Assembly: GCA_902491535.1 (NCBI GenBank)
Contig: CABUHS010000010.1
Span: 6,541-70,540 of the forward strand
DNA length: 64,000 bases
Direction of reading: 5' to 3'
Source: an uncultured Eubacteriales bacterium
GTDB taxonomy: Bacteria; Bacillota; Clostridia; Oscillospirales; CAG-272
Every line of letters begins with the position of its first letter. The stretch's first letter is position 1. Shown one piece after another: positions 2,846 to 64,000 of this stretch. Position numbers and translations under genes: made by a program. The notes under the pieces were generated by a model, which was given only the letters and a program-made list of their open reading frames with translations, had not been told where the DNA came from and did no database searches.

Positions 2846-2874
2846 TTGACATTTTTTTTTAATTATGCTACAAT
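2846..2874 (+). promoter_or_regulatory. Sigma-A type promoter for valS
   Basis: TTGACA (2846-2851), an exact 17-nt spacer, then TACAAT (2869-2874), about 85 nt upstream of the valS ATG. Confidence 0.65.
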
Positions 2875-2959
2875 ATATCTATTATTATAAAATAAGATTT
2901 GTACCGGATCACAGCTGTTTACAAAAAACATATATCTGTCTGAAAGGAATGAAAATATA

Positions 2960-5605: not shown

Positions 5606-5651
5606 AAGCAGTAAATCAAATTCGCTGTATTAATAACAATTTATATTTATA

Positions 5652-5693
5652 ATAAAAAAATAAGGGAGGCTTTTCCTATGAAAAGCCTCCCTT
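5652..5693 (-). terminator. Intrinsic terminator-like hairpin (U-run on the minus strand)
   Basis: 13-bp stem aagggaggctttt / aaaagcctccctt, preceded on the plus strand by an A-run, in the convergent valS/HAD intergenic region. Confidence 0.5.
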
Positions 5694-5716
5694 TAAAAAT
5701 AATAAAGAATTTACAT

Positions 5717-5765
5717 AAAAATATCAGCATGGACATTTACTTATCTATCCTTGCTGATATTTTTT
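5717..5765. terminator. Bidirectional terminator-like hairpin
   Basis: 9-bp stem atatcagca / tgctgatat flanked by AAAA and TTTTT. It lies between convergent genes. Confidence 0.5.
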
Positions 5766-5881
5766 AGTCCTAAATATAAAAGATTTCTTTTTAACTTCGG
5801 TGTTGCCAATGCCTATTTTAGAAATCTTTTATTGAAGCGCTCGATAAACTGTAAAACACTCATGACGGTCGGCGACTGAAA

Positions 5882-6628
5882 CTATAAAAGATTTGCTTCG
5901 ATAAAGTGTGCCACACCGTCTTCGTCATTGCTGCCGGTAATATAATCCGCTGCATTCGTCACGGCTTCGATTGCATTGGAAACTGCAACTCCAATACCGC
6001 ACATCTGGATTGGTTCAATATCATCGTTATCATCGCCAAAATAGACAGTATTGGTTTGTAAAATATTCAGAGCTTCAAGTGCTACTTTAATTCCGTTCCA
6101 TTTTGTTGCATTTTTACTCATGATTTGCACAAGAGTGTTTTTTGCAATGGTATAATATACGTCCTTAGTTAATATGTGTTCAATTTTGGCGTATAAAGTA
6201 TCATTTGCGCTGCTTGCCAAAATCTTATACAAAGTTTCCTGAGCCGGCAAATTTGGGAAATCATCATAACAGGTGGAGTCCCATTCCGGAATTGCGACAT
6301 TGGAGTATATACCGTTACTTGTTTCAATAGAGATAAGTGTATCAGATATTGAAATCAGTGAGGACAAAACACATTCTCCGCTTAAACGTGGAATACTATT
6401 TTCAATTACCTCATTGGGCAAAATAATTTTGGCTCCATTCATGGTTATAGCTGCATCAAAGCCGACTTGCTCATGGTATATCAGTATGCTTCTTTCGGGT
6501 CTTGCCGTTGCTGCTATAATAGCAATACCTTCATTGTGACATTTTTTCAAGACATTAAGCGTGTATGCCGAAAGTGTCTTGTCAGTACGCAGCAGCGTTC
6601 TATCCAAGTCAACAATAATAGCTTTCAC
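5882..6628 (-). CDS. Cof-type HAD-IIB family hydrolase (sugar phosphatase-like)
   Basis: 248 aa. HAD motif I is DLDRTLL at the N-terminus and the C-terminal motif is GDDNDD. The length and cap region are typical of Cof/YidA-like phosphatases. Confidence 0.8.
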   Translation of the reverse strand: MKAIIVDLDRTLLRTDKTLSAYTLNVLKKCHNEGIAIIAATARPERSILIYHEQVGFDAAITMNGAKIILPNEVIENSIPRLSGECVLSSLISISDTLISIETSNGIYSNVAIPEWDSTCYDDFPNLPAQETLYKILASSANDTLYAKIEHILTKDVYYTIAKNTLVQIMSKNATKWNGIKVALEALNILQTNTVYFGDDNDDIEPIQMCGIGVAVSNAIEAVTNAADYITGSNDEDGVAHFIEANLL

Positions 6629-6843
6629 TTAAAGCTCCTCCACAAATTTTAGTTTATTGCCTTGCATTTTACCACAGGTGTTTGCAAAATTCAATTCACT
6701 TTCTTGAAATCACCGGAGTTTTAATCAGTAATACTTATTAAAAGAAGGAAATATAAAAGTTTCGGTCAAGCCTTTTTAAGGGGTTGCGGGTGTCCGAGGG
6801 CAGAGCCCTCGGAGTCCTTTTTCCCTAGGAATCTTTTCTCTGT

Positions 6844-7866
6844 TTATCGCTGAACTCTTCCCGAACCGTCGCCGCCTGCGAGTTTTTCAACCTCGGCAAC
6901 TGTTGCGTGATTGTAGTCTCCCTCTACTGCGTGCTTGAGTGCAGAAGCGGCTACAGCGAATTCAACAGCAGCTTGCGAATCTTTTCCAGATAGAAGTGCA
7001 TAGATAAGACCTGCACCGAAGCTGTCTCCGCCGCCTATACGGTCAACGATATGGAGATGATAAAGCTTTGAGAAACAGTATTCATTTCCGTCGTAAAGCA
7101 TTGCGCTCCAGTCGTTGTCGAATGCGGACTTACTCTCACGGAGAGTTATAGCGACCTTTTCAAATCCGAATTTCTCGGCAAGCTGTCTTGCGACAGACTT
7201 GTAACCTTCTTTGTTAAGCTCACCTGCGGTAATATCTGTTGCTTCTGCTTCTATACCGAATACGTCCTTTGCATCCTCTTCGTTGGAGATGCATACGTCA
7301 ACGTACTGACAAAGCTCGGTCATAGCCTCTCTTGCCTGTTCTCTTGTCCACAGCTTACCGCGGTAGTTCAGGTCGCATGATATCTTTATGTTTCTTGATT
7401 TTGCTGCGATACAAGCCTCGCGGCATATTTCAACGAGATTCGGTCCGAGTGCGGGCGTGATTCCCGTAAAGTGGAACCAATCGACACCGTCAAAGATCTT
7501 GTCCCAGTCAAAGTCGGAGGGCGCCGCTTCCTGAATAGCCGAATGAGCGCGGTCATAAATGCAAACGCTCGGACGCTGAGACGCACCTTTTTCATTGTAG
7601 TAGATACCGACACGGTCGCCTCCGCGAACGATAAGCGATGTGTCAACTCCGTAACGGCGGAGACTGTTTACAGCGCTCTGACCGATCGCGTGTGCGGGAA
7701 GTTTTGTAACATATGCGGCGTCAATGCCGTAGTTTGCGAGCGATACAGCGACATTTGCCTCGCCGCCGCCGAATGAAAATTGCAGGTGATCTGCCTGTAC
7801 AAACCGTTCGTAATTATAGGGCTGAAGGCGGACCATAAGCTCGCCGAATGTAATAACTTTAGCCAT
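6844..7866 (-). CDS. kdgK: 2-dehydro-3-deoxygluconokinase (PfkB family)
   Basis: 340 aa with PfkB signatures (GGGEANVA near the N-terminus, DRIGGGDSFGAG near the C-terminus). It overlaps eda by 8 nt within a hexuronate operon. Confidence 0.85.
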   Translation of the reverse strand: MAKVITFGELMVRLQPYNYERFVQADHLQFSFGGGEANVAVSLANYGIDAAYVTKLPAHAIGQSAVNSLRRYGVDTSLIVRGGDRVGIYYNEKGASQRPSVCIYDRAHSAIQEAAPSDFDWDKIFDGVDWFHFTGITPALGPNLVEICREACIAAKSRNIKISCDLNYRGKLWTREQAREAMTELCQYVDVCISNEEDAKDVFGIEAEATDITAGELNKEGYKSVARQLAEKFGFEKVAITLRESKSAFDNDWSAMLYDGNEYCFSKLYHLHIVDRIGGGDSFGAGLIYALLSGKDSQAAVEFAVAASALKHAVEGDYNHATVAEVEKLAGGDGSGRVQR

Positions 7867-8506
7867 TGTTTCTTGTCTCCTTTACAATTTCTACAGACTT
7901 TTTGCAGAGCTCTGTGATCTCATCCCATTTTCCGCCGTCGATAAGATCTGCGGTGACCATGTAGCTTCCTCCGCAAGCACAGATAACGGGGCAGGAGAGA
8001 TATTCTTTAAGGTTTTTAAGCGAGATTCCGCCTGTCGGCATTATCTTGAACATCGGGAAGGGCGCGGACATTGCTTTGATCTTGGAAAGACCGCCGGACT
8101 GCTCCGCAGGGAAGAATTTCAGAACTTCAAGTCCGAATTTAAGTGCCGCGTGGTAGTCGGTCGGGGTAGTGCATCCGGGATATATCGGAATGTTTTTTTC
8201 GACGCAGTATGCGACAAGCTCCGGATCGAATCCGGGAGTAACGATAAACTGAGCGCCGGCTTCTACTGCTTTGTCAAGCTGTTCCTTTGTAAGGATCGTG
8301 CCTGCACCTACAAGCATATCGGGATGTGTCTCCCGCATTATTTTTATAGCCTTGTCTGCTCCTGCGGCGCGGAAGGTAACCTCTGCGACGGGAACTCCTC
8401 CGGCGCACAGCGCAGCTGCAAGCGGTTCTGCATCTTTTTCGGGATTGTTAAGCTTGATGACCGGAACAACGCCGATCTGTGAAATTTTTTCATTAAAGGA
8501 ATTCAT
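7859..8506 (-). CDS. eda: 2-dehydro-3-deoxy-phosphogluconate (KDPG) aldolase
   Basis: 215 aa. Eda/KdgA-like sequence (VPVIKL...GGVPVAEVTFR...VGAGTILT...FKIMPTGGI) in an operon context with kdgK. Confidence 0.85.
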   Translation of the reverse strand: MNSFNEKISQIGVVPVIKLNNPEKDAEPLAAALCAGGVPVAEVTFRAAGADKAIKIMRETHPDMLVGAGTILTKEQLDKAVEAGAQFIVTPGFDPELVAYCVEKNIPIYPGCTTPTDYHAALKFGLEVLKFFPAEQSGGLSKIKAMSAPFPMFKIMPTGGISLKNLKEYLSCPVICACGGSYMVTADLIDGGKWDEITELCKKSVEIVKETRNNG

Positions 8507-8729
8507 TTTTTAACCTCATCTTTCTCCCGAAATCGTAATGTCGGGAAAAATTGATTTTAATTGGATCTGCTCCGTAGCAGATTTGTACGGGGATAATCAT
8601 TAGTTATGTATACACTTTGCTTAAAACAGCAGAACGCTGCTCTGCCTGAAGTGAATTGGCGAACATTCGGTATACGGCATGATTTTTATGCCGATATTGT
8701 TTATATAAAAATCCGTGAAAACAGTTGTC

Positions 8730-10313
8730 TCAGCGCTCGGAAACGTATTTGTGAAGTGTTTTACGTACTGCTCCGACACCGACAAACAGCTCTTCAGCCA
8801 TTTTTACGGTTCGCTCTCCGAGTCCTGCTTTATAAAGGTCGACGCCGAAAATGTCGGAGCGGCTGTAAAGTTTTTCAAGACAGCTCATATCCTGCTTGGA
8901 TTCAGTTATCTTCAGAGGAGCGACAATTGCCTGAAGCTCTTCGAGAAGCGGATCGGGAGATGGGGTAAATGTGTTTCCGCTGTCGTCAATACCCGTAAGA
9001 TAACGGGCATAGCCTGCCAGTACAAGCGGTATAAGCACAAGCTCATCGGTGTTAAGACCGCGCTCGAGATATGCTTTGATAGTTTCACCGAAGCGTATGG
9101 AAAGCTTTTGGGAAGTGTCGGTGGCGATTCTCTGCGGAGCATCGGGCATGAACGGATTCGGCAGGCGCTTTGTCAAAACCGCTCCGATAAAGTCAGCCGG
9201 TTTCAGTACGCCCGGATCTACAACGACAGGCATTGCTTCGGTATAACCTATCTTGGTTATCAGACTGCATATATCCTCATCCTTCATCTCGTCGGATATA
9301 AGGGTGTATCCGAGCATGCAGCCGAAGATCGACATTGCGGTGTGAAGGGGATTGAGGCATGTACATACCTTCATTTTTTCGACCTTGTCGACAGTTTCTC
9401 GGTCGGTGAAAAGAACGCCGCCGGCTTCGAGCGGAGGACGTCCGCAGGTGTAATTGTCCTCGATTACAAGGTATTCTGTTTCTTCTGCGTTGACGAATGC
9501 GGAAGTGTAGGTGTTTTTCGCAGTTACGATAACCTCGCTGTCCTCAAATCCGTCGCTGTCGAGAAGCGCCTTTATCTTTGCGTCAGGTCTCGGAGTTATC
9601 TTGTCGATCATGCTCCACGGGAAGGTGACCTTTGTTTCGTCGCGGAGATAATCGGCAAAGTTATTCGGGACGAGTCCGGCTGCTGTCCATGCGTCGGCAT
9701 ATGTGAGAACGGCGGATCTCACCTTGTCACCGTTATGCGAGCAGTTGTCCATGCTCTGAAGAGTGATCGGAAGCTGTCCTGCATTGAAGCGTGCGAGCAG
9801 GAGAAGTGTTATCTTACCCATAATCAGTGAGGGATCAAATCCTTTTGCCGTATCGTTTTCCGATACCGAGTAGCCCTTTTCAGTAATTGTAAAGCTTACC
9901 ATCTGAAGGGACGGCGCACGGAATATTTCGAGCAGGCGGTTCCAATCTTCGGTGAAGCTTTTGTCAGCTTTGAGACTTTCGGTGACCGATGCTATAACCT
10001 TTTTATCTGCCGTACCGTCCGATTTAAGAACGGCGAGAAGACTCAGATTGTCGAACGGACGGTATGCGCGGTCGATAATTTCGTAATCGAAGCCTTCGGC
10101 GACGATAACACCTTTATCGTAGATTCCTTCGTCAAGCGCTTTTTGCAGGACTGCCGCCGGAAAAGCGCGGAATATGTTTCCTGCGCCGAAATGGATCCAG
10201 GAAGGCTCTTTTTTTGTATTTTCCGTGACCTTTTTAATATCGAATTTCGGGAGAGCAATGTTTGCTTTATCCCATACGTCGCGGTCGCGGATTCCGTTTA
10301 AATTCAGTTTCAT
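8730..10313 (-). CDS. uxuB: Mannitol dehydrogenase-family oxidoreductase, probably fructuronate (D-mannonate) reductase
   Basis: 527 aa with an N-terminal Rossmann motif (IHFGAGNIFRAF) typical of long-chain mannitol dehydrogenases. It sits directly downstream of uxuA. The substrate assignment comes from context only. Confidence 0.6.
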   Translation of the reverse strand: MKLNLNGIRDRDVWDKANIALPKFDIKKVTENTKKEPSWIHFGAGNIFRAFPAAVLQKALDEGIYDKGVIVAEGFDYEIIDRAYRPFDNLSLLAVLKSDGTADKKVIASVTESLKADKSFTEDWNRLLEIFRAPSLQMVSFTITEKGYSVSENDTAKGFDPSLIMGKITLLLLARFNAGQLPITLQSMDNCSHNGDKVRSAVLTYADAWTAAGLVPNNFADYLRDETKVTFPWSMIDKITPRPDAKIKALLDSDGFEDSEVIVTAKNTYTSAFVNAEETEYLVIEDNYTCGRPPLEAGGVLFTDRETVDKVEKMKVCTCLNPLHTAMSIFGCMLGYTLISDEMKDEDICSLITKIGYTEAMPVVVDPGVLKPADFIGAVLTKRLPNPFMPDAPQRIATDTSQKLSIRFGETIKAYLERGLNTDELVLIPLVLAGYARYLTGIDDSGNTFTPSPDPLLEELQAIVAPLKITESKQDMSCLEKLYSRSDIFGVDLYKAGLGERTVKMAEELFVGVGAVRKTLHKYVSER

Positions 10314-10387
10314 AGTATTTTCCTGTATATGATTTCCGGGGACTGCTGTCTCTCGACAGAGACAGACATGTCTCCTGTTTTTTTATT

Positions 10388-11458
10388 TTATTTTGACTGT
10401 TTTTCAATTGCTTCCCAAAGTCCGCAGAGATAAGCGGCACCGAGCGCGCGGTCATACAGACCGTAACCGGGCATAGCCTTTTCTCCCCAGATCATGCGTC
10501 CGTGGTCAGGACGCATAGGACCGCAGAATCCTGTGTCGTAAAGCGCTTTCATGATCGCGTACATGTCGAATGTACCGTCCGCACTCAGATGTGCGCTTTC
10601 TTCAAAATCGCGGGAACCGTCATTGAAACGGAGATTCCTCACGTGAGCGAAATGTATACGGCCTTTGAGCATATGAATGGTGTCGACAATATTGTTTTCA
10701 AGATTTGTTCCGTATGAACCCGTGCAGAGTGCGATACCGTTGTGACGGTTCGGAACCATATCTATCATACGCTTCATTTTTGCCTGACTTGAGATGATTC
10801 TCGGAAGACCGAATATGCTCCAAGCGGGATCGTCGGGATGAACAGCCATATTGATGTCGTATTTATCACAAACAGGCATTATGGCTTCGAGGAAATATTT
10901 GAGATTAGCAAAAAGCTGTTCTTCTCCGATATCGCTGTACATTTCGAACAGTTCTTTTATCTTTGCCATACGTTCCGGCTCCCATCCGGGAAGTACCGCG
11001 CCGTTCATGTTGTCCTTGATAGAACCGAACATTTTTTCGGGATCCATGCCGTCGATCATATCCTGATTGTATGCCATAACGGTCGTTCCGTCTGCTCTGG
11101 GACGGTCAAGTTCTGTACGTGTCCAGTCGAATACAGGCATGAAGTTATAGCATACCATGTGTATATCGGCTTTTCCGAGATTTTCGAGAGTTTTTATATA
11201 TGCTTCGATGTCCTTGTCGCGGTCTGCCGATCCGGTTTTGATTGCATCGCTGACGTTGACGCTTTCGATACCGGAGATATGAAGTCCGGCGTCCTCAACT
11301 TCCTTTTTGATAGCGCCTATCTCGTCCTCTGTCCAGAGTTCGCCCGGCATCTTGTTCATGAGCGATGTGATTATTCCTTTTGTATAGCAGATCTGCCTGA
11401 TCTGTTCGAGGGTAACGGTATCGTAGCTTTTACCGTACCAACGCATTGTCATTTCCAT
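10388..11458 (-). CDS. uxuA: Mannonate dehydratase
   Basis: 356 aa. The N-terminus MEMTMRWYG and the overall sequence are typical of UxuA. Confidence 0.9.
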   Translation of the reverse strand: MEMTMRWYGKSYDTVTLEQIRQICYTKGIITSLMNKMPGELWTEDEIGAIKKEVEDAGLHISGIESVNVSDAIKTGSADRDKDIEAYIKTLENLGKADIHMVCYNFMPVFDWTRTELDRPRADGTTVMAYNQDMIDGMDPEKMFGSIKDNMNGAVLPGWEPERMAKIKELFEMYSDIGEEQLFANLKYFLEAIMPVCDKYDINMAVHPDDPAWSIFGLPRIISSQAKMKRMIDMVPNRHNGIALCTGSYGTNLENNIVDTIHMLKGRIHFAHVRNLRFNDGSRDFEESAHLSADGTFDMYAIMKALYDTGFCGPMRPDHGRMIWGEKAMPGYGLYDRALGAAYLCGLWEAIEKQSK

Positions 11459-11568
11459 GTTCTTGTCTCCTGAGTATATATGTAGTGATTTTACTTGTTT
11501 TTGACCGCTTTTTTCGGATGAATGGGCGGATTGTTATTATCTTCTATATTTTCGGTGTATTGGAATGT

Positions 11569-12423
11569 TCAGATTGATTCTATAAATTTCTTTATGAATC
11601 TGCCGTAAGGCCCGCGGACGCGTTCTGCCGTTTCGAGAACTTCGACGTGAGAGAGCGGCTGCTCAAGAACTCCTGCCGCCATATTGGTCATGCAGGAAAA
11701 TCCGGCAACACGCAGTCCCGCATGCTTTGCCACAATGACCTCCGGTACGGTCGACATTCCGACTGCGTCGGCACCGAGCGTGCGAAACATGCGGATCTCC
11801 GCAGGCGTTTCAAAGCTCGGCCCTGTAGACTGCAGATATACACCTGCATGAGCTGTTACATCACATTCCTTGGCGATATTCAGCGCAAGTTCTGAAAGAT
11901 TTTTATCGTATGCCGCGCTCATATCGGGAAAACGCGTTCCGAGACGGTCGTCATTTTCTCCGGTCAGAGGATTCTTCGCGGTAAAGTTGATGTGATCGGT
12001 TATTATCATCATGTCGCCTGCGGAATACGCGGTGTTTATTGCTCCGGCTGCATTTGTTACAACGACGGTTTCAATTCCGAGCATTTTCATGATATAGACT
12101 GGCATTACCACATCGCGCATGGAATGTCCCTCATACGGGTGAAGTCTTCCGCTCATCAGCAGAACGTCCTTTTTACCGATGCTTCCGCAGATCCATTCTC
12201 CCGCATGGCCGGGAACTGTAGATACAGCCATTCCGGGAACTTCGCGGTAGGGTATCCTTACGGGATTTTCTACCTGTCCGGCGATATCTCCCCAGCCTGA
12301 GCCAAGTATAAGAGCAGCGGACGGATTTCGGTCTCCGATCCTGCCGCGGATATACTCCGCAGCAGAGCATATCGTATCGTAGTAGTTGTTTTTGCTGTTC
12401 ATATCAGCGCCCGCCTTACTCAA
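11569..12423 (-). CDS. Purine nucleoside phosphorylase (trimeric PNP/MTAP class, inosine/guanosine type)
   Basis: 284 aa with the motifs GSGWG, SGRLHPYEGH, VTNAAGA, GPSFETPAE, GADAVGMSTVPE and TNMAAG. An alternative start at 12402 is possible. Confidence 0.85.
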   Translation of the reverse strand: MSKAGADMNSKNNYYDTICSAAEYIRGRIGDRNPSAALILGSGWGDIAGQVENPVRIPYREVPGMAVSTVPGHAGEWICGSIGKKDVLLMSGRLHPYEGHSMRDVVMPVYIMKMLGIETVVVTNAAGAINTAYSAGDMMIITDHINFTAKNPLTGENDDRLGTRFPDMSAAYDKNLSELALNIAKECDVTAHAGVYLQSTGPSFETPAEIRMFRTLGADAVGMSTVPEVIVAKHAGLRVAGFSCMTNMAAGVLEQPLSHVEVLETAERVRGPYGRFIKKFIESI

Positions 12424-14789: not shown

Positions 14790-15095
14790 TCAGTCTTTTT
14801 CTTCGTTTTCATTATCTTCATCGTCCTGAGCAAAGTCCTCGCTTATGCCGGACGGGAGTCCGGAATATTCGGCGAGCTTCAGAGCTGCTGCACCGACTGT
14901 TTTCATTCCGAGCAGTTCTTCATCGGTGATGTTTATCCCGAGGCGATCCTCTGCTTCGGAGAGCATTATGACAAGATCGAGTGAATTTGCTCCGATGTCC
15001 TCGATCAGGCGCGAGCTTTCGCATACCTGCGACTGATCTGTTCCGAGTCTCTCGGACAGTATTCCGAGAATGAGTGCGTATACCGTATTTTCCAT
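14790..15095 (-). CDS. Acyl/peptidyl carrier protein-like protein with an acidic C-terminal tail
   Basis: 101 aa. It has a phosphopantetheine-site-like motif IGANSLDLVIMLSEAEDRLG and a tail DDEDNENEEKD. Confidence 0.55.
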   Translation of the reverse strand: MENTVYALILGILSERLGTDQSQVCESSRLIEDIGANSLDLVIMLSEAEDRLGINITDEELLGMKTVGAAALKLAEYSGLPSGISEDFAQDDEDNENEEKD

Positions 15096-53212: not shown

Positions 53213-54280
53213 GTGATGCCAATGAGAGAAATCTCAAAAAAGATGGACATTGTAACCGACATTTTGGACACCGCCTTCGACAAGCCGTGGGAAAAGTATT
53301 CTGCTGAAGAATACAAAATCCAGCTTGAAGAAACAAAGTCCAAAGTCCGGGAACTAACGCCCGAACAAGAGCTGAAATTGATGAATAAGCGTATGAATCT
53401 GCGAATACAGGTGACCGCCATTTACAAAAAGGACAGACATGGCAGCCAAGCAACCCGCAAGCGATACTATCAAGCCGCCTGCTATGCCTGTGATTATATT
53501 GCCGGCACCTGTAATTTACAGAAATTCGCAAACTTTCATCCAAAGCATTTCCGTGAAGTTGCAGAGTATTGGAAAACAACAAAAGAACTAAATACGGTTT
53601 ATACCGAGCTTACAGGTTTGCGCAAATATTGTGAGTATGCAGGGTGTAAATACAAGATGCCTGAAAACAAGGAACTGAATCTGCCGAAGCGCGAACCGAC
53701 AAAATATAACCGCGCATGGCTACCTCACGAAATTCAGAAAGCAAAAGAACTTGCTGAAACAATGGGTAGATTCGATGTCCGGGATGCTATTGAACTCGGA
53801 GAAAAATTGGGTCTTCGGATTATCGAAGCCTGTCAGTTCAAGGTCGGAGATGTGAAATCCGCACTCGGTTGGGGCGGTTTGGAAATCAAGAGTAAGGGCG
53901 GTCAGATACGGTTTGTCCCGATTGAAACTGAAGAACAGAAGGAGCTTCTGCAACGCCTGTATCGTGAAGCAAAAGAAAAAGGGTTAATGGACGACGATTT
54001 TATTCTGAGCAAGACAATCAAATACGGTCCGCGTATGGAAAAGAAGTCTATCGAAAACTGGATATACAATCATCGCAAAAAGTTTACAGACCCAAATCGA
54101 GAGCAAACGATAAAGCGCGGTAAAAAGCCGCGGGTTAAAAACATTGTCTTCCACGGGCTTCGCCACAGCTACACACAGGAACGGGGCAAACATTTGCAAG
54201 GCGATCCTAGAAGACAGCAGAAGCTCAGCGAGGGCTTGGGTCATCATCGGTTGTCGGTGACGAATATTTACAAAGAATAA
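53213..54280 (+). CDS. Tyrosine recombinase / phage-integrase family protein
   Basis: About 352-355 aa. It has C-terminal catalytic motifs HGLRHSY and LGHHRLSVTNIY (the Tyr nucleophile sits near the end). The likely start is ATG 53222, 8 nt after AAGGAG. Confidence 0.8.
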   Translation: MMPMREISKKMDIVTDILDTAFDKPWEKYSAEEYKIQLEETKSKVRELTPEQELKLMNKRMNLRIQVTAIYKKDRHGSQATRKRYYQAACYACDYIAGTCNLQKFANFHPKHFREVAEYWKTTKELNTVYTELTGLRKYCEYAGCKYKMPENKELNLPKREPTKYNRAWLPHEIQKAKELAETMGRFDVRDAIELGEKLGLRIIEACQFKVGDVKSALGWGGLEIKSKGGQIRFVPIETEEQKELLQRLYREAKEKGLMDDDFILSKTIKYGPRMEKKSIENWIYNHRKKFTDPNREQTIKRGKKPRVKNIVFHGLRHSYTQERGKHLQGDPRRQQKLSEGLGHHRLSVTNIYKE

Positions 54281-54642: not shown

Positions 54643-55107
54643 AATTGTATATTATTAAAAGGGAAGGAAAGCTCTGAATTATCGCAAATTAATGCAAAAT
54701 ACCCTATAAATTGCTTAATTATATAATAATAAGGACGTTTCGATTTTATTGTGTGTTAGAATTTCCTGTGATTTCGTTAGAAAAATCGTTAGACAGACAA
54801 TCACCGTTTTAGCCCCGTTTTTACTACGCTTAATTTTATCATTGACGTAACAGAAGATCAACTTATTTATACTGTTTTTATAAAAAAGAAATACCAAGTA
54901 TAATAGCTTTGCCAGATATTTTTGGTGTAACAAAACAATTAGCGTATATTTATTCGTTCCTGAAATCTTGCAAGACAGCGATACTACATACATGTCAGAG
55001 ATATTCATGCGGAGACATATATACTCCCTAAATGCAGAAAAAATAAAAACAGTACTGTTTATGTGAATTGTTGAATAAAAAATAATAAATATTTTTTTGT
55101 AAATATA

Positions 55108-55136
55108 TTGACATAGTTTGGCTAATATGTTAAAAT
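55108..55136 (+). promoter_or_regulatory. Strong sigma-A promoter with an extended -10 at the head of the island
   Basis: TTGACA (55108-55113), a 17-nt spacer ending in TGT, then TAAAAT (55131-55136). Confidence 0.55.
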
Positions 55137-55716
55137 ACAAACAAGATAAAGTCAGATTAATAAATCTAACGATATCTTATATATAATACCCAGTTTAATA
55201 TTTCTCAGGAATTACCTTTTAATAAGAACAGGACATCCCCCTAACGTATCACTTGATTTTTTCAGTATAAGGTATGAGGCTTGTTATGAAAAACTGTTTT
55301 TCCAAGGCGTGTATATCCCTTAATGAAATAACGGTATCAGACTGCAAAAATGATGCAATAAATGCTATTGCTATGTCCAAATTTAATATGTGCGTAAACA
55401 GCGCATTGCTTGCTTGATAGAGGCTTGCTTTGCGCTGTTTTGTCATATAATACTCTATCATGTGCTTGATTATATTTTTATAACAAAACATTAATTATAC
55501 TAGAAATAATTGGAGTGTTTTATGATATTGTTGATTATTATGAAGAAAAGGATTAATATGTGGGGTTAGAAATTCAAAAAAATCAATACTGAATATTCAA
55601 TATTCTAATCCAATTTAATATACAATTTTTTTAGTACGATGTCATAGGTATTGAATAGCATAAGCGTATTAAACAGAAACATTAAGAAGTATAAAACTTG
55701 CGGAGGAAATAAAAAA

Positions 55717-57117
55717 ATGTCAAGGAACTTAAAAATGTCTAAGTATAACTTTATCTGTTTAGATAAAGAAGGAGATTTAATTTTATATAATTTTCTAAAT
55801 GGAATATCAAGTTTAACTAAGATAAAAAAATCTGATATTGATAGTTTCACTAATGGATTTTTGACGAATTCTGAGAAACTTTATGCGGCTTGTAATGAAT
55901 ACAAAGAAATGGCTAATACATTGCTTAAGTTAGGTATATTAGTAGATGATGACACAGACGAAAGTGTTTTATATGATGCAAAACAGTATAGCGAAATTTA
56001 TGATACAAAGCTATACCTTACTATTTTCCCAACAGGAAAGTGTAATTTTAGATGCCCATACTGTTTCGAAACCTCACAAGATTTTAGTCGAGATACAATG
56101 ACGAGTGATTCGCAGGATGCAATACTTAAATTTGTTCAAAAGACAATATCTAATCATAGAATGCTTCATGTATCTTGGTTCGGTGGTGAACCGTTAGTAG
56201 CATCCGAAGTAGTTGAAAATTTATCCGATAAATTTATCCAAATTTGCAATGTAAGACATATACCCTATTCTGCTGATATGGTAACAAACGGCTTTTTACT
56301 TGATTCTAATATGTTTGATACACTTTATAAATTACAGGTATATGATTATATGATTACTATTGATGGATTTAAAAAACAGCATGATAAAAGGAGATTTACA
56401 TATGATGGTAAGGGTTCATATGATACAATTATGGATAACTTGTTAAAGATACGAAATAATAAGCAGTATAAATTTGCTAATATAATGATTCGTGTCAACA
56501 TGTCAACTGGATTTTTGGAAATGCTTGACGAATTTGTGAATTTTCTTGGTTCATCATTTGCCGATGATCCGCGATTCAAATTCATGTTTGTGCCTGTAGT
56601 CAAGTTTTCTAGTTCTCATTTTTCAAATGAAATTATCTATTCTAATCATAAAGAATTGTACATGCGTCTTTCTAAAAATGATGTTTATACGAATAAACTA
56701 TATCCTAATATGCTAAAATTAACTTCAATACTTCCGCAGCAAAAGTGCCCGGCATGCTTAAAAAATTCATATGTTATTACTTCCGATTTGAGTGTGTATA
56801 AATGTAATGCTCACTATGATTTTGATATCAATAAAATCGGGCGAGTAAATTTAAATGGTGATCTATTAATTGATGAAACTCTTCATAGAAGGTGGTACTT
56901 AATGAAAAAGTCTATTCAGAGAATACCCGAATCTTGTAATGACTGTTTCTACTCTCCTTGTTGTCTAAATATCGATTCTGGTTGTCCAGTCAGCTATCTT
57001 AAAACGAATCCAGATGTAACATTATGTCCGTTGAAAGATGAAAATAAAAAAAATAATATTGTTGAAACAATTTTATACGCTGCTGATATATATCCCTGTA
57101 CGACACTTGCATTATAA
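55717..57117 (+). CDS. Radical SAM / SPASM-domain peptide maturase
   Basis: The start at 55717 follows a GGAGGA RBS. It has a CxxxCxxC cluster (GKCNFRCPYCFE) and a roughly 100-aa N-terminal extension (possible RiPP recognition element). The C-terminal Cys-rich SPASM region is CPACLKN...YKCNAH...CNDCFYSPCCLNIDSGCP. Confidence 0.88.
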   Translation: MSRNLKMSKYNFICLDKEGDLILYNFLNGISSLTKIKKSDIDSFTNGFLTNSEKLYAACNEYKEMANTLLKLGILVDDDTDESVLYDAKQYSEIYDTKLYLTIFPTGKCNFRCPYCFETSQDFSRDTMTSDSQDAILKFVQKTISNHRMLHVSWFGGEPLVASEVVENLSDKFIQICNVRHIPYSADMVTNGFLLDSNMFDTLYKLQVYDYMITIDGFKKQHDKRRFTYDGKGSYDTIMDNLLKIRNNKQYKFANIMIRVNMSTGFLEMLDEFVNFLGSSFADDPRFKFMFVPVVKFSSSHFSNEIIYSNHKELYMRLSKNDVYTNKLYPNMLKLTSILPQQKCPACLKNSYVITSDLSVYKCNAHYDFDINKIGRVNLNGDLLIDETLHRRWYLMKKSIQRIPESCNDCFYSPCCLNIDSGCPVSYLKTNPDVTLCPLKDENKKNNIVETILYAADIYPCTTLAL

Positions 57118-57284
57118 TTTTATGTATATATAATTATAATCATAAAATCAAACTACTTTTCAATTTAAATATTGTAACTTTAAAATGGTATTATATCGTA
57201 AATTTCAAAATTTTGTTACAAAAGATTTATATAAATATTAGTATAATTGTTTTTAAAATTTGATTTAGAGGAGGTAAATAGTAT

Positions 57285-57542
57285 ATGATATTTACATATC
57301 AAATGCTTGTCAAAATATTAGTTGATAAATTAGGCTTTGTTCTTCTTGATGGTAGACAAGATGATTTTGCTATTAATGAATACGTTACTGATTCTGTAAC
57401 GTTTATCAAATTAATTATTGCTATAGAAGAGACTATTGGAAAAGAATTAACAGATGACTTTCTTGATTACGAAATGTTGAGTTCCGCAAAAGGCTTTGCG
57501 GCAAAAATAGATTGTTTCATTGATTCTTCTAAGGATCAATAA
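57285..57542 (+). CDS. Acyl carrier protein-related small protein
   Basis: 85 aa. TDSVTFIKLIIAIEETIGKELTDDFL matches the ACP helix II region with a DS(L/V) phosphopantetheine-site-like serine. A good RBS (GAGGAGG) precedes it. Confidence 0.7.
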   Translation: MIFTYQMLVKILVDKLGFVLLDGRQDDFAINEYVTDSVTFIKLIIAIEETIGKELTDDFLDYEMLSSAKGFAAKIDCFIDSSKDQ

Positions 57543-57605
57543 ATACTATTAAATACTGGGATTAATTAATTTTGAGCGTTACTATAGTTTTTATAAAAGA
57601 ACTAA

Positions 57606-57620
57606 AAACGCGACGCGTTT
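57606..57620. promoter_or_regulatory. Perfect 15-bp palindrome AAACGCG-A-CGCGTTT just upstream of the precursor RBS (operator candidate)
   Basis: It is a GC-rich dyad in an otherwise AT-rich stretch, and it ends 4 nt before AAGGAGG. Confidence 0.4.
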
Positions 57621-57640
57621 AAGAGAAGGAGGTGAATACT

Positions 57641-57775
57641 TTGAAAAAGATCTTAAAAAAGAAGATAAAATTTTCATCGAATGCTATTCGTTATTTTTCC
57701 GGTGAACTTGTTCAATATTGGAAACCAGAGAATTTTCCAGATGGTACTTCTGGTACTTGTCATTATACGTGTTAA
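57641..57775 (+). CDS. Candidate RiPP precursor peptide (44 aa), not in the ORF track
   Basis: An AAGGAGGTG RBS lies 7 nt before a TTG start. The translation is MKKILKKKIKFSSNAIRYFSGELVQYWKPENFPDGTSGTCHYTC, with a basic leader-like N-terminus and a Gly/Ser/Thr/Cys C-terminus. It lies between the ACP-like and protease genes. Confidence 0.6.
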   Translation: MKKILKKKIKFSSNAIRYFSGELVQYWKPENFPDGTSGTCHYTC

Positions 57776-58111
57776 CTATAATAATACCGTTATAAATTAT
57801 AGTAATATTGATAGTTATTCACTATGTTAAACGAAGTAATGAATGATTAGAAATGTTATAGCAGTTTTTAATCATCGCGTTATTCTCCTAATTTTAGAAG
57901 ATTGATTTTTTTGCTATGTGTATGTAGAAACTATGGTAACGCTAAGTTTTTACATATTTTGATTATTTCTTCACTGAAATAAAATTTATATATAGTATGC
58001 AGCAATAGTATATTGTTTCGTATGGGTTTGTTTTTGATAAGCGTTATTCACCCAAAAGAATAATATAATCTGCATTAACAAGTACTTTGAGAAATGAGGT
58101 GAAATAACATT

Positions 58112-59902
58112 ATGTATTATGATGTAGTAATTATTGATAGTGGAATTAATGTGAGCAATGATTTTAACATGAATGGAATTTGTATAGAAAAAAATAGTGA
58201 AGGTTTTTTGATTGATAATAATTTGAAGGATGAATTCGGACATGGAACTATTATTTACTCTATAATAAGTAAATGTATAGATCCAAGCAAAATTTACATT
58301 ATTAAACTACCTGCCAATCGCGTAGAGCTTGACGATTCTTGTTTAATTGCTGCATTGGAATATATAAAAAAGAATATTAAATGTAAAATTATTAACATTA
58401 GTTTAGGTGTAAAAAGTGGTGAAAATATAGATAAATTATATAATATATGTGCCGAAATATCAGCAATGGGGATCGTAATAGTTTCTGCTTTTGATAATGA
58501 AGGGTGTCATTCATATCCAGCTGCGTTTGATTGTGTAATTGGAGTTGATAATAAATATGATTTTAAAATTTCTACAGAATTTGATTTTGTAGAAAATAGT
58601 CCCGTAAATATCTTAGCAAAAGGAGATATACAACGTCTAACCGTTCAAGATGGCAAAATACTATTAGTCGGCGGAGCGAGTATATCGTGCGCACATATAA
58701 CTTCTATTTTAACTAAAAAAATAATTGGTAATTTAAATCTTCAAGGCGCGTTGTCATATTTAAAGTCAAAATCTAGGCATATTTATTCTTCTCATAAATT
58801 AGAGGGCGTTATAGAAACACCTCTTTTTAAGATTACAAATGCAGCGGTCTTTCCGTTTACAAAAGAGGCGCATGCATTTGTTAGATTTGCTGATATGTTG
58901 AAATTTAATATACAGTGCTATTATGATATTAAGCGTTCTGGAAAAGTAGGAAGAAAGATATCTAGTTATTATGAAGGTGTAAAGACTGAAGAATGTATTA
59001 AAGATATTAATAAAATTGATTTTTCGAATATAGACACTATTATACTTGGACACTTGGATGAATTAAATGCAGTTTCTAAACGAGATTACAAGATGGAATT
59101 AATAAGAAATGCTATTGTGAATGGTGTTAACGTTTATTCATTTGATCCTCTGGATTCGTATAGTGAGATACTAAACAATTCAGGAATAAAATATTATTAT
59201 CCAAGTGTAACAAATAACAATATACCGAAAAATACATTTGGAAAGTTATATAAAATTTCCAAACCAGTTGTTGGTATTTTTGGGACATCGTCACGACAGG
59301 GAAAATTTTCTCTGCAATTAACATTAAAGAGAGAATTGGAATCACATGGTTACGATGTAGGAACAGTTGGCACAGAGCCGCATTCGCCATTGTTCGATTT
59401 TGATGTTGTTTTTCCAATGGGATATAATTCTACTGTACGCTTGTATAATAACGAAATTGTATTATATTTGAATAATGAAATTAACAAATTATGTTTGAAT
59501 GGTAAGGAAATTATATTAGCTTCTACACAAGCACAAATTATACCTTATTATTGTAATAATTTGCTTGAATATCCGTCAATGCAATACCATTTTGCATTAG
59601 GAATAAATCCGGATGCAATAGTAATGTGCATTAACTATCATGATGAAATACAATATATTAAAAACTCTATATATGCGCTGATGGGATTAACGGATGCGAA
59701 TGTAATTGCATTTGTAATATATCCGATAACATACTCTAGTGATTGGAATGGAATATATGGTAACACAAAACATAAAATAACATATGAAGAATACAAACAG
59801 AAAGCAGACTCTTTGCTAAAAGAATTTCAAATTCCGGTTTATATGTTAGGTGATAAAGAACACATAAATGAATTGTATCAAACAATAATTAATTTCTTTT
59901 AA
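58112..59902 (+). CDS. Fusion protein: N-terminal subtilisin-like (S8) serine peptidase domain plus a roughly 370-aa C-terminal domain of unknown function (DUF1611-like by motif)
   Basis: The Asp-His-Ser triad order is VVIIDSGIN, GHGTIIYS, GGASISCAHITS. The C-terminal GIFGTSSRQGKFSLQLTLKRELESHGYDVGTVGTEPHS resembles the Gly-rich GTD..GK..T loop of DUF1611-type proteins (from memory). Confidence 0.7.
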   Translation: MYYDVVIIDSGINVSNDFNMNGICIEKNSEGFLIDNNLKDEFGHGTIIYSIISKCIDPSKIYIIKLPANRVELDDSCLIAALEYIKKNIKCKIINISLGVKSGENIDKLYNICAEISAMGIVIVSAFDNEGCHSYPAAFDCVIGVDNKYDFKISTEFDFVENSPVNILAKGDIQRLTVQDGKILLVGGASISCAHITSILTKKIIGNLNLQGALSYLKSKSRHIYSSHKLEGVIETPLFKITNAAVFPFTKEAHAFVRFADMLKFNIQCYYDIKRSGKVGRKISSYYEGVKTEECIKDINKIDFSNIDTIILGHLDELNAVSKRDYKMELIRNAIVNGVNVYSFDPLDSYSEILNNSGIKYYYPSVTNNNIPKNTFGKLYKISKPVVGIFGTSSRQGKFSLQLTLKRELESHGYDVGTVGTEPHSPLFDFDVVFPMGYNSTVRLYNNEIVLYLNNEINKLCLNGKEIILASTQAQIIPYYCNNLLEYPSMQYHFALGINPDAIVMCINYHDEIQYIKNSIYALMGLTDANVIAFVIYPITYSSDWNGIYGNTKHKITYEEYKQKADSLLKEFQIPVYMLGDKEHINELYQTIINFF

Positions 59903-59947
59903 ATATTTGCTGATAATAAGGAATGGTAAAAAGGAGATTATATTAAT

Positions 59948-60352
59948 ATGGAAGAAAAAATTAAACTTTTGTCAATAGGAAAAAAAAGGGCAAAAAAGAC
60001 GAATTTAGAGGGATGGGCGAAAATTGTAGAAAGATACGCTCCGGATATGTATGATTTGTTGTATGGAGCTGGGGAGAAGGATGCATTAAAAAAAGTTCGC
60101 GAACTCAGACCTGAGATAATATTGATATTGCCAAGTATATTGCAAAATGACTTAAAAGATGGTTTGAGTTTATTAAAAAAAATAAAGGAACTGCATCCTG
60201 AAGCAGCTGTATTTGTATGTATGGGTATGGTGGATGATGAGCAGGATGCGTTTGACGAATATAAAGCTTGTGGTGCATATAAATGCTATTCAGCACCTGT
60301 AAGTATGGATGCATTATTTCATGATATGTATGTAGCATTAAATTTGGAATGA
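59948..60352 (+). CDS. Stand-alone receiver-like (CheY-fold) protein with a degenerate phospho-acceptor site
   Basis: 134 aa. A REC-like pattern (KVRELRPEIILILPS...GLSLLKKIKELHPEAAVFVCMG...GAYKCYSAPVSMDAL) is present. However, the acidic pocket, the acceptor Asp and the conserved Lys appear replaced. Confidence 0.5.
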   Translation: MEEKIKLLSIGKKRAKKTNLEGWAKIVERYAPDMYDLLYGAGEKDALKKVRELRPEIILILPSILQNDLKDGLSLLKKIKELHPEAAVFVCMGMVDDEQDAFDEYKACGAYKCYSAPVSMDALFHDMYVALNLE

Positions 60353-60378
60353 TTAAACATGGGAGGACAATAGAAACC

Positions 60379-62164
60379 ATGAAAAGAGTAAAAAACATAC
60401 AGTTAGACAATTTGTTACTTTCCTTTAAAGAAATATGGAATTATGATAAGAGACTTATATTTCTTTTACTTGCTGATGTTTTTATAAGTGCGATACGACC
60501 GTTTCCCAACATTATTCTTTCTGGACGTATTGTTGATAGTATCGCTTATGGAAAGAATTTTTTGTCGGTTATCTTTTATATGGTTTTGATGTTTGGTATA
60601 AATTACTTTATAACAGCCATAGGTACTTTTTTGTCAAGATATAGAGAATATTTATTTATTAAGTTAAGTAACAAATTGGATAATGATGTAAATGAAAAAT
60701 GTTGATTTTGAACAGTTTAACGATTCTTCCGTTCAAGATCGTATCATGATGGTTAACCAAGCAATACGTGGAAATAATTTTTTTACTAGCCTTACTATCG
60801 TTTTTTCTACAATTTCTCAATTTGTAACCCTTATTGGAATAGTATATGTAATGACAATTTTAAATATATGGTTGTTAGCTATTGCGTTGATAGTTATTGT
60901 TTTACAGACAATATTGCATTATATGAACCTTAGGTATGATAGAAAGTATATGGAAGATTCTGTGAGCGAACGCAGGAAAATTGCTTATGTATCACAATTA
61001 ATTAAGGATATACAAAGTAAAAAAGATATTGTAATGTTTGGGATGGGTGATTACATATTAAAAAAAATCAAATCTTTTCAACAGACAATGCTAATATTCG
61101 ATAAGCGCCGAATACGGTGGGGTGGATTTATTGAGATGACTACTTATTCTTTAAACGTAGCCTTTCAAATTTTTGCTTATATATTGATTGGAATTAACGC
61201 TTTTAATAAAGATATTTCTATTGGTGATTTTACAATTGGTATTGCTTCTTTGATGAATTTTATGTCTGCATCTTCCTTTGTAACTAATAACATACTTACC
61301 TTTAACGATAATTTTTTTTATATTAGGCAGTATAAATCCTTTAATAAGCTCAGAAGCAAGTTTGATAAATCATCTTCTAATATTACGTTAAACAGCATAG
61401 ATAAAAACAAAATTGAAATAGAGTTTCGCAATGTTTCTTTTCGATATCCTAATAGTACTGCATTCGTATTAAAAAATATAAATTTGACAATAAAGAATAA
61501 TGAACGTCTTGGGATTGTGGGATATAATGGCGCAGGCAAGACAACATTCACTCTTTTGTTAACTCGTATGTACGATCCTACAGAAGGATCGATATATTTG
61601 AATGGCATAGATATTAGAAATATTGATTATAAAGAATACCAAAAGATTATTTCATCGGTTAATCAGGACTTTTCTCTTTTGGCTTTTTCTTTGTTGGAAA
61701 ATATCGCTATTACAGATATAGCATCTCAAGATGAAAGAAAAAAAGTATTGGGACTTTTAAATGATAATGGTTTACAAGAAAGAATGAGGAAGCTTTATAG
61801 AGGACTTGATACGCCGATTACAAAGACGTTGTCTGCATCAGGTGTTGATTTATCAGGGGGAGAACGTCAAAAAATCGCGGTAGTACGCGCACTTTATAAG
61901 GATTCTCCAATTCTGATACTAGATGAGCCTACATCGGCACTTGATCCAGTTGCTGAACACGAAATATTTCAGAAATTTTCAGAAATGTCCGAAGGAAAAA
62001 CAACTCTTCTTATCTCTCATAGAATATATAGCACTCGTTTTTGTGATAAAATTGCAGTTTTTGATAAGGGTGAGATAAAAGAATATGGAACGTTCGAAGA
62101 GCTAATGGGATTGAAAGGCTTATATTATGAGTTCTTTCAACAACAAGCGGAATACTTTAAATAA
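60379..62164 (+). CDS. ABC exporter, fused permease/ATPase; reading frame broken by a 1-nt shift in an A5 run (60695-60699)
   Basis: ORF 60349-60705 carries TM helices 1-2. ORF 60692-62164 carries the rest of the TMD and the NBD, with Walker A GYNGAGKTT, signature LSGGERQ and Walker B ILILDEPTS. The two ORFs are contiguous parts of one exporter. An RBS (GGGAGGA) precedes ATG 60379. Confidence 0.8.
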
Positions 62165-62375
62165 TAATAATTAGAATTTAATTTGTTAATGCAATACTGC
62201 AATATATAAACATATGACCGTCATTGCAAGAAATGAATAGTAAAGAGTAAATATTATTATCAGAATTAAGTTTATAATATTATATTTCAATGAATGGTTT
62301 AAATATTGTGTTGGTTGGTAAATACATTATAAAAATTAATTGCTTTTAAGCGGGCGGAAAGGTGTTATAATACTT

Positions 62376-63401
62376 ATGAATAAGATACTTCCTATTGAAA
62401 TATCTCCAATTATCAAAGCATATGTTAATCACGCATATCCGTTTGGAATTATAGAAGCAAATTTCAGTGAGCAGATTTTATTACGCTTGTTATGTGATAA
62501 ATATGTAAATTGTATATATAGCAAAAATGATAGAAATAAATTTTATATATATGAAGCCGATAGTTGGTTTGAACAATCGGGTGCAATAACGCATCAAAAC
62601 CTTATGTGTAAAGAAAAAGATATAGTATGTGTACGTGAAGCTATTGAGGAAGCACGTCGAAGAATTGTTAAAGGAGAATATGTTTATTCTTCTCCTAATG
62701 AAGGAAAAATATCCGCAATTAGTCAGGGACGAATATATGATTTTGATCACGAATGTTTGATATATGGATTTAATGATGATGAAAGATTTTATCAATCTAT
62801 TGGATATATAAGACCACCAGAATATGTAAATTATTATACCCCATATAAAATTACATATGATGAATATGAAGAAGCCTTGTTAAATGTTCAAATCGGTGTA
62901 GTAGAGTTGTTATTTTACAAAGTAAATAAAGATTTTGTATTACCGAGCATTGATTTGGAAAATGTTTTAATGTTGTTTAGACAATACCTTGACTCTGATA
63001 TTCCAAAGTTTTCAACCAACTATGACTTGCGTGGAATTATTGATGCCGGAGAATTGAAATTTGGTATATCTGCATGGAACGAACTCGCTATGTATATTGA
63101 ATACATTGATGTTGATAAAAAAATTGATATGCGGTATGTCAGAAGTTATATGGAACATAAATATTTAATGAAGAAGCGAATTTTATATATTTTAGAGTAT
63201 TTGAGTATTTTCAATTCATCTATAATCGAAAAGGTTTCTAAAATTTATCGTGAATCGCAAGATATAATGTTGCTTTCGTTAAAATATAATTTTACAGGAA
63301 GTAATATATTATTGAAACGTATTTCCGATAAAATCAAAATAAATAATATGAATGAAGTTGAATACTTATCGAAAGTAATCGATTATATAATCGCTTTTTA
63401 A
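62376..63401 (+). CDS. Hypothetical protein (341 aa), last gene of the cluster
   Basis: It is an AT-rich ORF with no recognisable motif, no TM segment and no signal peptide. The start was chosen at MNKILPIE; the longest ORF starts at 62340 (TTG). Confidence 0.5.
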   Translation: MNKILPIEISPIIKAYVNHAYPFGIIEANFSEQILLRLLCDKYVNCIYSKNDRNKFYIYEADSWFEQSGAITHQNLMCKEKDIVCVREAIEEARRRIVKGEYVYSSPNEGKISAISQGRIYDFDHECLIYGFNDDERFYQSIGYIRPPEYVNYYTPYKITYDEYEEALLNVQIGVVELLFYKVNKDFVLPSIDLENVLMLFRQYLDSDIPKFSTNYDLRGIIDAGELKFGISAWNELAMYIEYIDVDKKIDMRYVRSYMEHKYLMKKRILYILEYLSIFNSSIIEKVSKIYRESQDIMLLSLKYNFTGSNILLKRISDKIKINNMNEVEYLSKVIDYIIAF

Positions 63402-63415
63402 ATGTTTGAATATTT

Positions 63416-63844
63416 TTATAACCCTGTGCAGAGAAAATCCTCGATAATATCGTACATATGAATTGTGTTGATATTAAGGAGGTTACACAGAGCGGTAAGA
63501 TTTTGAACTGCTGTAAAGTTTACGCTTATATCTTCAAAAAATATTCCGTCTCCCTTAATGCCATAGCCGATATACTTGATTCCGTCAAGTGTGTAAGTTT
63601 CGTTATGCACCGAATAAATTTCAGGATTAAGCATATATTCAATCTCAGACAAAGTTGTTCCGTATTTTTCCCACAAAATCATAGCAGTACTCAGTTTGAT
63701 ATCGGATTTTCCGGACTCGATATTTCGTATTTGACGATCGCTGTATTCTATTGATTCAGCAACTTCCTCCTGCGTCAGTCGGTTCAGTGTTCTTAATTTC
63801 TGCATAAGTTTTCCGTAGTCAGCTGACTTTTCATGTTTTTTCAT
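63416..63844 (-). CDS. XRE-family HTH transcriptional regulator
   Basis: 142 aa with HTH LTQEEVAESIEYSDRQIRNIESG and a C-terminal domain of unknown function. It converges on the cluster end. Confidence 0.8.
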   Translation of the reverse strand: MKKHEKSADYGKLMQKLRTLNRLTQEEVAESIEYSDRQIRNIESGKSDIKLSTAMILWEKYGTTLSEIEYMLNPEIYSVHNETYTLDGIKYIGYGIKGDGIFFEDISVNFTAVQNLTALCNLLNINTIHMYDIIEDFLCTGL

Positions 63845-64000
63845 ATTCTTGATAGAGTATCTTGTTGGTGTTGTGCCAACAAAAACCTGAAGGAATTAAA
63901 AAATATCTATTTGTACTTGCCTGCTTACTGGGAAAAATTAAAGGAACTTCAATCTAAAACAGACAGACCTATGAAACAGAGCGGGTCTGTTTTTGATTTA

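Follow-up and report, generated by a model that had tools for sequence, protein, structure and literature searches.

The closest described relatives of the locus analysed here are the gene cassettes annotated as a 'peptide maturation system', which combine CcpM with TIGR04066 and TIGR04069 proteins. A TIGR04069 (ocin_ACP_rel) cassette has been annotated in Roseburia intestinalis L1-82 (PMC4573289) and another in the SacP23 cluster of Paenibacillus polymyxa (PMC10731318), and neither paper reports a test of the function of the ACP-related protein. Literature searches on DUF1611, the TIGR0406x families and CcpM yielded annotations only and no biochemistry. The presence of an ACP-like protein in such clusters is already known at the level of annotation.

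Carrier proteins with an established chemistry provide the second point of reference. Stand-alone type-II carriers (the aminoacyl carriers, PDB 4h2w and 2jq4; AsbD, DltC and AmcB) have their loading enzyme encoded nearby, and the aminoacyl carrier proteins are loaded by amino-acid:[carrier protein] ligases. Lipolanthines and goadvionins are the precedent for a carrier protein that delivers an acyl group to a ribosomal peptide, and their clusters encode parts of a fatty-acid or polyketide synthase together with a GNAT transferase. During butirosin biosynthesis (BtrI/BtrJ/BtrH), a small dedicated ACP is loaded via an acyl-phosphate route and not by adenylation, and the BtrH-type transferase unloads it by passing the acyl group to the aminoglycoside.

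The locus compared with these systems occupies the distal part of a 64-kb window, by which we mean the whole stretch of DNA that was analysed (64,000 nucleotides). Its features are as follows.

55108-55136, + strand: promoter-like site ahead of the cluster (TTGACA, 17 nt, TG-TAAAAT)
55651-57117, + strand: radical SAM/SPASM peptide maturase, 488 aa, TTG start at 55651 with an alternative ATG at 55717
57270-57274, + strand: Shine-Dalgarno sequence GGAGG of the carrier gene, 10 nt upstream, read from the sequence
57285-57542, + strand: gene of the carrier protein (predicted ACP/PCP fold), 85 aa, ATG start, pI 4.2
57390-57395, + strand: codons of Asp36-Ser37 at the helix II N-cap, where 4'-phosphopantetheine is predicted to be attached
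57606-57620, no strand assigned: 15-bp GC-rich palindrome AAACGCGACGCGTTT in the carrier-precursor intergenic region
57641-57775, + strand: precursor peptide gene, 44 codons from a TTG, product Cys-containing and ending in ...GTSGTCHYTC
58112-59902, + strand: gene of the 596-aa protein, a fusion of a subtilase and a P-loop domain
58112-58816, + strand: subtilase (S8, QhpE-like) domain
58817-59902, + strand: TIGR04066-like/DUF1611_C P-loop domain, the C-terminal 360 residues and proposed partner of the carrier
59282-59311, + strand: Walker-A-like loop GTSSRQGKFS, residues 391-400
59948-60352, + strand: receiver-like protein, 134 aa
60349-60705 and 60692-62164 (together 60349-62164), + strand: ABC exporter in two overlapping ORFs
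62376-63401, + strand: accessory protein, 341 aa, without a curated family
63416-63844, - strand: convergent XRE-type HTH regulator

All genes from the radical-SAM gene through the 341-aa gene are co-directional. The promoter-like site ahead of them has 11 of 12 matches and an extended -10 element, and is a consensus match only. The maturase matches Radical_SAM with 47.4 bits; its best NCBIfam models are TIGR04463 (194 bits), CefB and Clo7bot, all three matched far below their cut-offs. The precursor peptide and the receiver-like protein (Response_reg 18.1 bits, below threshold) are both conserved in two related loci, L001 and L005, and the convergent regulator matches HTH_3 with 35.8 bits. 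The window precursor lacks a C-terminal DD(I/V)LF; the paper on flm/ohk (PMC12703449) is concerned with peptide arginases and makes no reference to a carrier protein. The exporter is split at an A-rich stretch (...aatgaaaaatgttga...) into ORFs in different frames, and in L001 and L005 it is a single ORF of about 600 aa. If the split is not due to faulty assembly, it is a genuine frameshift and would abolish export. Positions 55000-64000 form an AT-rich island with 25-31% GC as against 36-46% in the preceding 10 kb, and a tyrosine-recombinase-like gene (53213-54280) lies just upstream of the cluster; these two features together suggest that the cluster was acquired horizontally.

The ORF at 57285-57542 is a real gene. 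The sequence-only reading had noticed an ACP-like helix-II signature with a candidate serine, and the peptide it quoted, VTDSVTFIKLIIAIEETIGKELTDDFL, is present in the 85-aa product, where the serine is residue 37 (codon tct, 57393-57395). The Pfam model PP-binding (PF00550) aligns with residues 8-71 at 19.6 bits (E 1e-3) and thus misses the gathering score of 20.8 bits by a marginal shortfall that is specific to the window sequence. Since 41 of the 50 syntenic homologues described below also match PP-binding (E<=0.01, best 4e-10), the match of the window protein is more than chance. Among the NCBIfam models, weak generic ACP models alone respond to the protein, with 13-17 bits against cut-offs of 71-106. 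The fatty-acid AcpP equivalog models (TIGR00517/PRK00982) give 14-15 bits in this range of cut-offs, so that the protein does not belong to them. With its acidity, fold and D-S-(L/I/V) motif, the protein resembles the stand-alone type-II carriers, which also give its best sequence matches, both among proteins of known structure and among curated models. It differs from them by its setting in a ribosomal-peptide cluster and by the lack of a recognisable loading enzyme gene nearby.

Predicted from the single sequence without an alignment, the AlphaFold2 (AF2) model was poor (pLDDT 56). A profile search of 1.84 billion representative proteins returned 220 relatives (E<=1e-3), and an alignment of 150 of them raised the model to a pLDDT of 88.7 and a pTM of 0.80. 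This model contains helices at residues 2-15, 37-51, 57-66 and 68-83, and Ser37 opens helix II. The 50 best matches listed by Foldseek against the PDB were all acyl, peptidyl or aminoacyl carrier proteins, with query-normalised TM scores of 0.53-0.68, and the profile of the carrier family retrieved 57 carrier proteins among the PDB sequences, two aminoacyl carrier proteins being on top. The 85-aa protein is thus predicted to have the four-helix ACP/PCP fold; a non-ACP fold would have spoken against the carrier assignment proposed from the sequence. The all-helical model has no strands and does not correspond to a RiPP recognition element, which is a PqqD-like winged helix.

The second feature by which the carrier assignment could be judged is the conservation of the serine, which aligns with Ser36 of E. 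coli AcpP. Among the profile hits, Ser37 is present in 155/155 sequences, Asp36 in 144/155 and Glu48 in 154/155, in a set that was gathered with a motif-containing profile and is therefore partly selected for the DS motif. For this reason a second set of homologues was built via the neighbouring gene. An alignment of the fused protease/P-loop protein yielded 69 loci, with one genome per species, from Lachnospiraceae, Oscillospiraceae, Paenibacillus, Sutcliffiella, Lutispora and others, and ACP-like ORFs in these loci were detected with two models, one of the window carrier family and one of a serine-less family. All 50 ACP-like ORFs that were found score higher with the model of the window carrier family. 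They retain Ser37 (50/50), Glu48 (50/50) and in most cases Asp36 (46/50) at a median identity of 21% to the window protein, and the D-S-(L/I/V) motif and the helix-II Glu persist in homologues down to about 13-20% identity. The candidate serine thus passed the conservation check in both sets, the second of which was independent of its own motif.

Several other ACP-like proteins were observed in and around these loci. In three closely related loci, the radical-SAM gene is preceded by an additional ACP-like gene (L001 6274-6555, L002 4302-4592, L003 4203-4493), which has D-P for D-S at the attachment site, so that serine-less and serine-bearing copies occur within one cluster. Some more distant serine-bearing relatives of the carrier adjoin AMP-binding enzymes (L036), which favours a true carrier. 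Others, in L033 and L038, have paired ABC exporters and genes of PF14907 ('uncharacterised nucleotidyltransferase') as neighbours; in L033 a Sfp-type phosphopantetheinyl transferase (PPTase) is also encoded on the same strand. The window itself contains an unrelated second stand-alone PP-binding protein (14790-15095, - strand, 100 aa, 34.6 bits, above cut-off). Its neighbours are sugar-acid genes (mannitol dehydrogenase-like, UxuA and glucuronyl esterase-like), with no loading enzyme nearby.

The census of the 69 related loci shows the company that the carrier keeps. The fused protease/P-loop protein was counted in 67 loci, ABC exporters in 56, the radical-SAM maturase in 46, a family of about 346 aa that includes the 341-aa protein of the window in 18, transglutaminase-core proteins in 11, LytTR regulators in 7 and GHKL kinases in 6, and extra radical-SAM enzymes are scattered among the loci. 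The carrier and the fused protease/P-loop gene are inherited together in 49/69 loci. A radical-SAM gene was detected in 46 loci, and in 42 of them it has the carrier gene as a same-strand neighbour; in 38 of these 42 the carrier gene lies directly downstream. The intergenic distances are mostly -31 to +48 nt and suggest that the two genes are coupled in translation. The order of genes is kept in dozens of genomes from several families, and the core of the cassette, which is uncurated, is a radical-SAM/SPASM maturase followed by the carrier, the precursor, the subtilase-P-loop fusion and the ABC exporter.

The N-terminal domain of the 596-aa protein resembles QhpE (NF049966, 88.6 bits, below cut-off), and its Asp9, His44 and Ser190 are invariant in the alignment of the subtilase/P-loop proteins; it is probably the leader peptidase. 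The C-terminal domain, which the sequence-only reading had considered unknown, can be placed: it matches DUF1611_C (PF07755) with 29.2 bits, above the cut-off of 25, and is TIGR04066-like, reaching 86.5 bits with this model ('peptide maturation system protein'), below the cut-off of 200. A PDB sequence search with the P-loop domain gave no match. Its loop is kept as GT(S/T)SxQGKF(S/T) in the fused proteins and resembles the GT-x-x-x-x-GK loops of BioD/CobQ-type enzymes. P-loop enzymes of the BioD/CobQ type activate carboxylates as acyl phosphates. DgcN, which we take to be a DUF1611 enzyme and an acetyl-CoA-dependent N-acetyltransferase, would by its use of acetyl-CoA bind a pantetheine-linked acyl donor. 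A published account names dgcN as the key gene of a D-glutamate pathway.

From its sequence relationships, we place the window cassette in a branch that is sister to the CcpM/TIGR04066/TIGR04069 'peptide maturation system' and is itself uncurated. Both share a small protein of (predicted) ACP fold in the context of a radical-SAM/SPASM enzyme, a TIGR04066-type protein, a subtilase and an ABC exporter, and both lack biochemical characterisation; in the window the subtilase and the TIGR04066-like part are fused. The carrier itself is not a TIGR04069 protein. The TIGR04069 model (cut-off 70 bits) gave no match at E<=1 by hmmscan, nor one at E<=10 at this locus in a whole-genome search, and a model built from 17 canonical TIGR04069 members also left the window protein unmatched. 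The canonical cassettes used in this comparison were gathered from 399 genomes of the same class by reading the ACP-like ORFs beside TIGR04066 genes, and these ORFs are true TIGR04069 proteins (88 and 100 bits). Their genes mostly lie directly downstream of the TIGR04066 gene, whereas the window carrier gene follows the radical-SAM gene and is separated from the TIGR04066-like domain by the precursor gene; it is not immediately downstream of a TIGR04066 gene. As a side observation, one genome contains three canonical TIGR04066 plus TIGR04069 pairs within about 16 kb (G125:C1:454185-470524; L071, L072), two of which are preceded by a detected radical-SAM gene.

The two branches also differ at the residues on which carrier chemistry would depend. 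At the position of AcpP Ser36, TIGR04069 proteins have Pro or Ala (Thr once) within a conserved x-P-R-D-L motif, and serine was found in 0/17 canonical proteins and in 0/2 from a phylum-wide sample (together 0/19); the window protein has Ser37 at the same position. The canonical TIGR04066 partners are free-standing proteins of about 375 aa, most of which read G-(I/L/V)-x-E-R-T-N-K-F-E where the fused proteins read G-T-(S/T)-S-x-Q-G-K-F-(S/T), and the window domain, fused to the subtilase, has GTSSRQGKFS. In the canonical loop (L067-L083), the Gly before the Lys and the hydroxyl residue after it are replaced, so the nucleotide-binding loop of these proteins looks degenerate by comparison. The serine-bearing carrier therefore pairs with an intact GTSSxQGKF(S/T) loop and the serine-less ACP-like protein with a degenerate loop. 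This pairing is the strongest sign obtained here of a joint function of the carrier and the P-loop domain, with the window version as the chemically active one. The contrast distinguishes just two clades, however, so that it could stem from one evolutionary event.

One further locus bears on the same partnership. In L156 (540-1750), the carrier ORF reads through, in frame, to the first ~15 residues of the TIGR04066-like domain before a frameshift; the subtilase domain and the precursor gene that would otherwise separate the two are missing. L156 is a metagenome contig with 1.9x coverage and frameshifts. Either a fusion of carrier and P-loop domain or decay of the locus may explain it, and we give it little weight. 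Of the proposals made in the sequence-only reading, the one in which the 596-aa protein, through its C-terminal domain, would load or use the carrier is thus favoured by co-inheritance (49/69), by the pairing of loop and serine and by the joined frames of L156, all of which fall short of biochemical proof.

The cluster had also been described as containing no synthase, adenylation or acyltransferase gene, and this holds for all cluster ORFs in the window when compared with Pfam and NCBIfam, and for the recurrent families of the 69 loci. Adenylation, ATP-grasp, ketosynthase and acyltransferase families do not recur in these loci, and a loading enzyme of a known class is found neither in the 64-kb window (Pfam, NCBIfam) nor recurrently in the 69 loci. 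The absence of a classical loader from the cluster family points to an unrecognised loader or to a new use of the carrier. The parts that accompany the lipolanthine and goadvionin carriers are absent here, and the candidate partner is instead the DUF1611-like P-loop domain. As a candidate for activating the carrier, the genome (88% complete) contains a single PPTase, a 230-aa Sfp-type ORF on contig C15. When the 69 loci were screened for PPTase genes with phmmer and HMMs, the one hit was in L117 (ACPS 44.2 bits, Sfp-type, 9821-10459, inside a co-directional operon). This locus, from a Bacilli MAG, is a tight co-directional operon (287-12068) that includes a transglutaminase-like gene, the radical-SAM gene, the carrier gene (its product matches PP-binding with 32.1 bits), the fused protease and two ABC genes. 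A SAM synthetase (10434-11594) and a 373-aa protein with a C-terminal second ACP-like domain (8740-9861) are encoded in it as well.

The 341-aa accessory protein, earlier called an ORFan, has 14 database homologues with 39-83% identity, and members of its wider family are encoded in 18 or more of the related loci. Tyr102, His125, Gly131, Gly230 and Arg268 are invariant in the family, and there is no invariant Cys. The BtrH_N model matches none of the 15 family members of the window protein, and hhalign gave E values of 0.16, against a BtrH_N-like relative, and 0.23. Accessory proteins in related loci do reach sub-threshold BtrH_N scores (26.5, 25.8, 18.8 and 15.9 bits; the 25.8 bits belong to the relative L005_322), and others are transglutaminase-core proteins above the Pfam cut-off. 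L034 has a second ACP after a 313-aa protein. As in the butirosin system, BtrH_N-like proteins recur, below threshold, in the related loci, whereas an ATP-grasp ligase is missing here and the 341-aa protein has no significant BtrH_N similarity. The acceptor, which is an aminoglycoside in butirosin, would be a peptide in the window system.

In our preferred reading, the window protein would be a dedicated type-II carrier that has the P-loop domain of the 596-aa protein as its enzyme partner, and to this full model we assign a probability of about 0.45. The part of it that concerns the cofactor is likely in its own right, namely that the 85-aa protein becomes a phosphopantetheinylated holo-carrier. 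Ser37 would be modified by the single Sfp-type PPTase of the genome, and the holo-protein would then bear a thioester-bound acyl or aminoacyl group. The P-loop domain could load a carboxylate onto the pantetheine thiol via an ATP-dependent acyl phosphate, as BioD/CobQ-type ligases do, or it could transfer the carried group to the peptide, as DgcN would transfer acetyl from CoA. Given the fusion of the P-loop domain with the leader peptidase, the thioether-cross-linked core peptide would most likely be the acceptor, at or after removal of the leader. A bolder version, which we consider rather improbable, sees in the carrier and the DUF1611-like P-loop domain an adenylation-independent module for loading and transfer, which would add a non-ribosomal group to the radical-SAM-cross-linked ribosomal peptide as its leader is removed. 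The TIGR04066/TIGR04069 pair would descend from this module as a pseudo-enzyme with a degenerate P-loop and a pseudo-carrier without the serine.

The position of the gene raises a different possibility, since the carrier gene is coupled to the radical-SAM gene and not to the P-loop gene. The carrier might serve the maturase, whose chemistry could involve a pantetheine-tethered group, or the 341-aa accessory protein acting as a BtrH-like transferase, in place of the P-loop domain. The coupling in 38/42 loci would fit such a role, as would the repeated sub-threshold BtrH_N matches among accessory proteins, the transglutaminase-core proteins above the Pfam cut-off, and the arrangements in L117 (a 373-aa protein with an ACP-like end) and L034 (a 313-aa protein followed by a second ACP). 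Against it, the window 341-aa protein has no BtrH_N match (hhalign E 0.16) and its family no invariant Cys, and the related loci have accessory proteins from several unrelated families or, in many cases, none. To our knowledge, no radical-SAM/SPASM peptide maturase needs a carrier protein, and we consider this assignment unlikely. It would leave the holo-carrier itself in place, in contrast to a cofactor-independent adaptor or chaperone that works through protein contacts alone, holding the precursor or bridging the maturase and the protease/P-loop protein, with Ser37 as an N-cap or interface residue. The sister system shows that an ACP-fold protein can serve such a cassette without the cofactor, as canonical TIGR04069 proteins lack the serine (0/19) and are yet strictly kept next to TIGR04066. 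An adaptor would also agree with the extra serine-less copy with its 'DP' motif in L001-L003, with the lack of a loader, and with the place of the gene right after the radical-SAM gene, where small chaperone genes stand in other radical-SAM peptide systems. However, the invariance of the serine, the preceding Asp and the helix-II Glu at 13-50% identity is the pattern of true carriers, 41/50 homologues match PP-binding, and the related operon L117 has a PPTase of its own. In addition, the serine-less family has a different conserved motif, xPRD, which suggests a changed function and not the same one. We hold an adaptor of this kind to be rather improbable for the window protein.

It is very improbable that the gene encodes a stray or housekeeping ACP of fatty-acid synthesis or that the ORF lies in the island by chance. 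The best curated matches are indeed generic ACP models, but their scores are far below the cut-offs, a separate and better ACP candidate is encoded on contig C3 of the same genome, and the gene has a strong ribosome binding site. The synteny, with a gene order kept in dozens of genomes of several families, effectively refutes a stray housekeeping ACP. Taken together, and as far as sequence comparison can tell, the window carrier is most likely a holo-carrier served by the fused P-loop domain.

Carrier proteins are a hallmark of non-ribosomal, fatty-acid or polyketide chemistry, and here one belongs to the core of a ribosomal-peptide cassette that is present in many gut and rumen Clostridia and in Paenibacillus. 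A fixed serine-bearing carrier in a peptide cassette hints at a carrier-delivered chemical group on ribosomal peptides. As the carrier has no known loader, the system would involve either an unrecognised loading enzyme, for which the DUF1611-like P-loop domain is the candidate, or a new use of the carrier fold. The paired contrast between the two branches, one with the serine and an intact P-loop and the other with neither, is a natural experiment on the function of either system.
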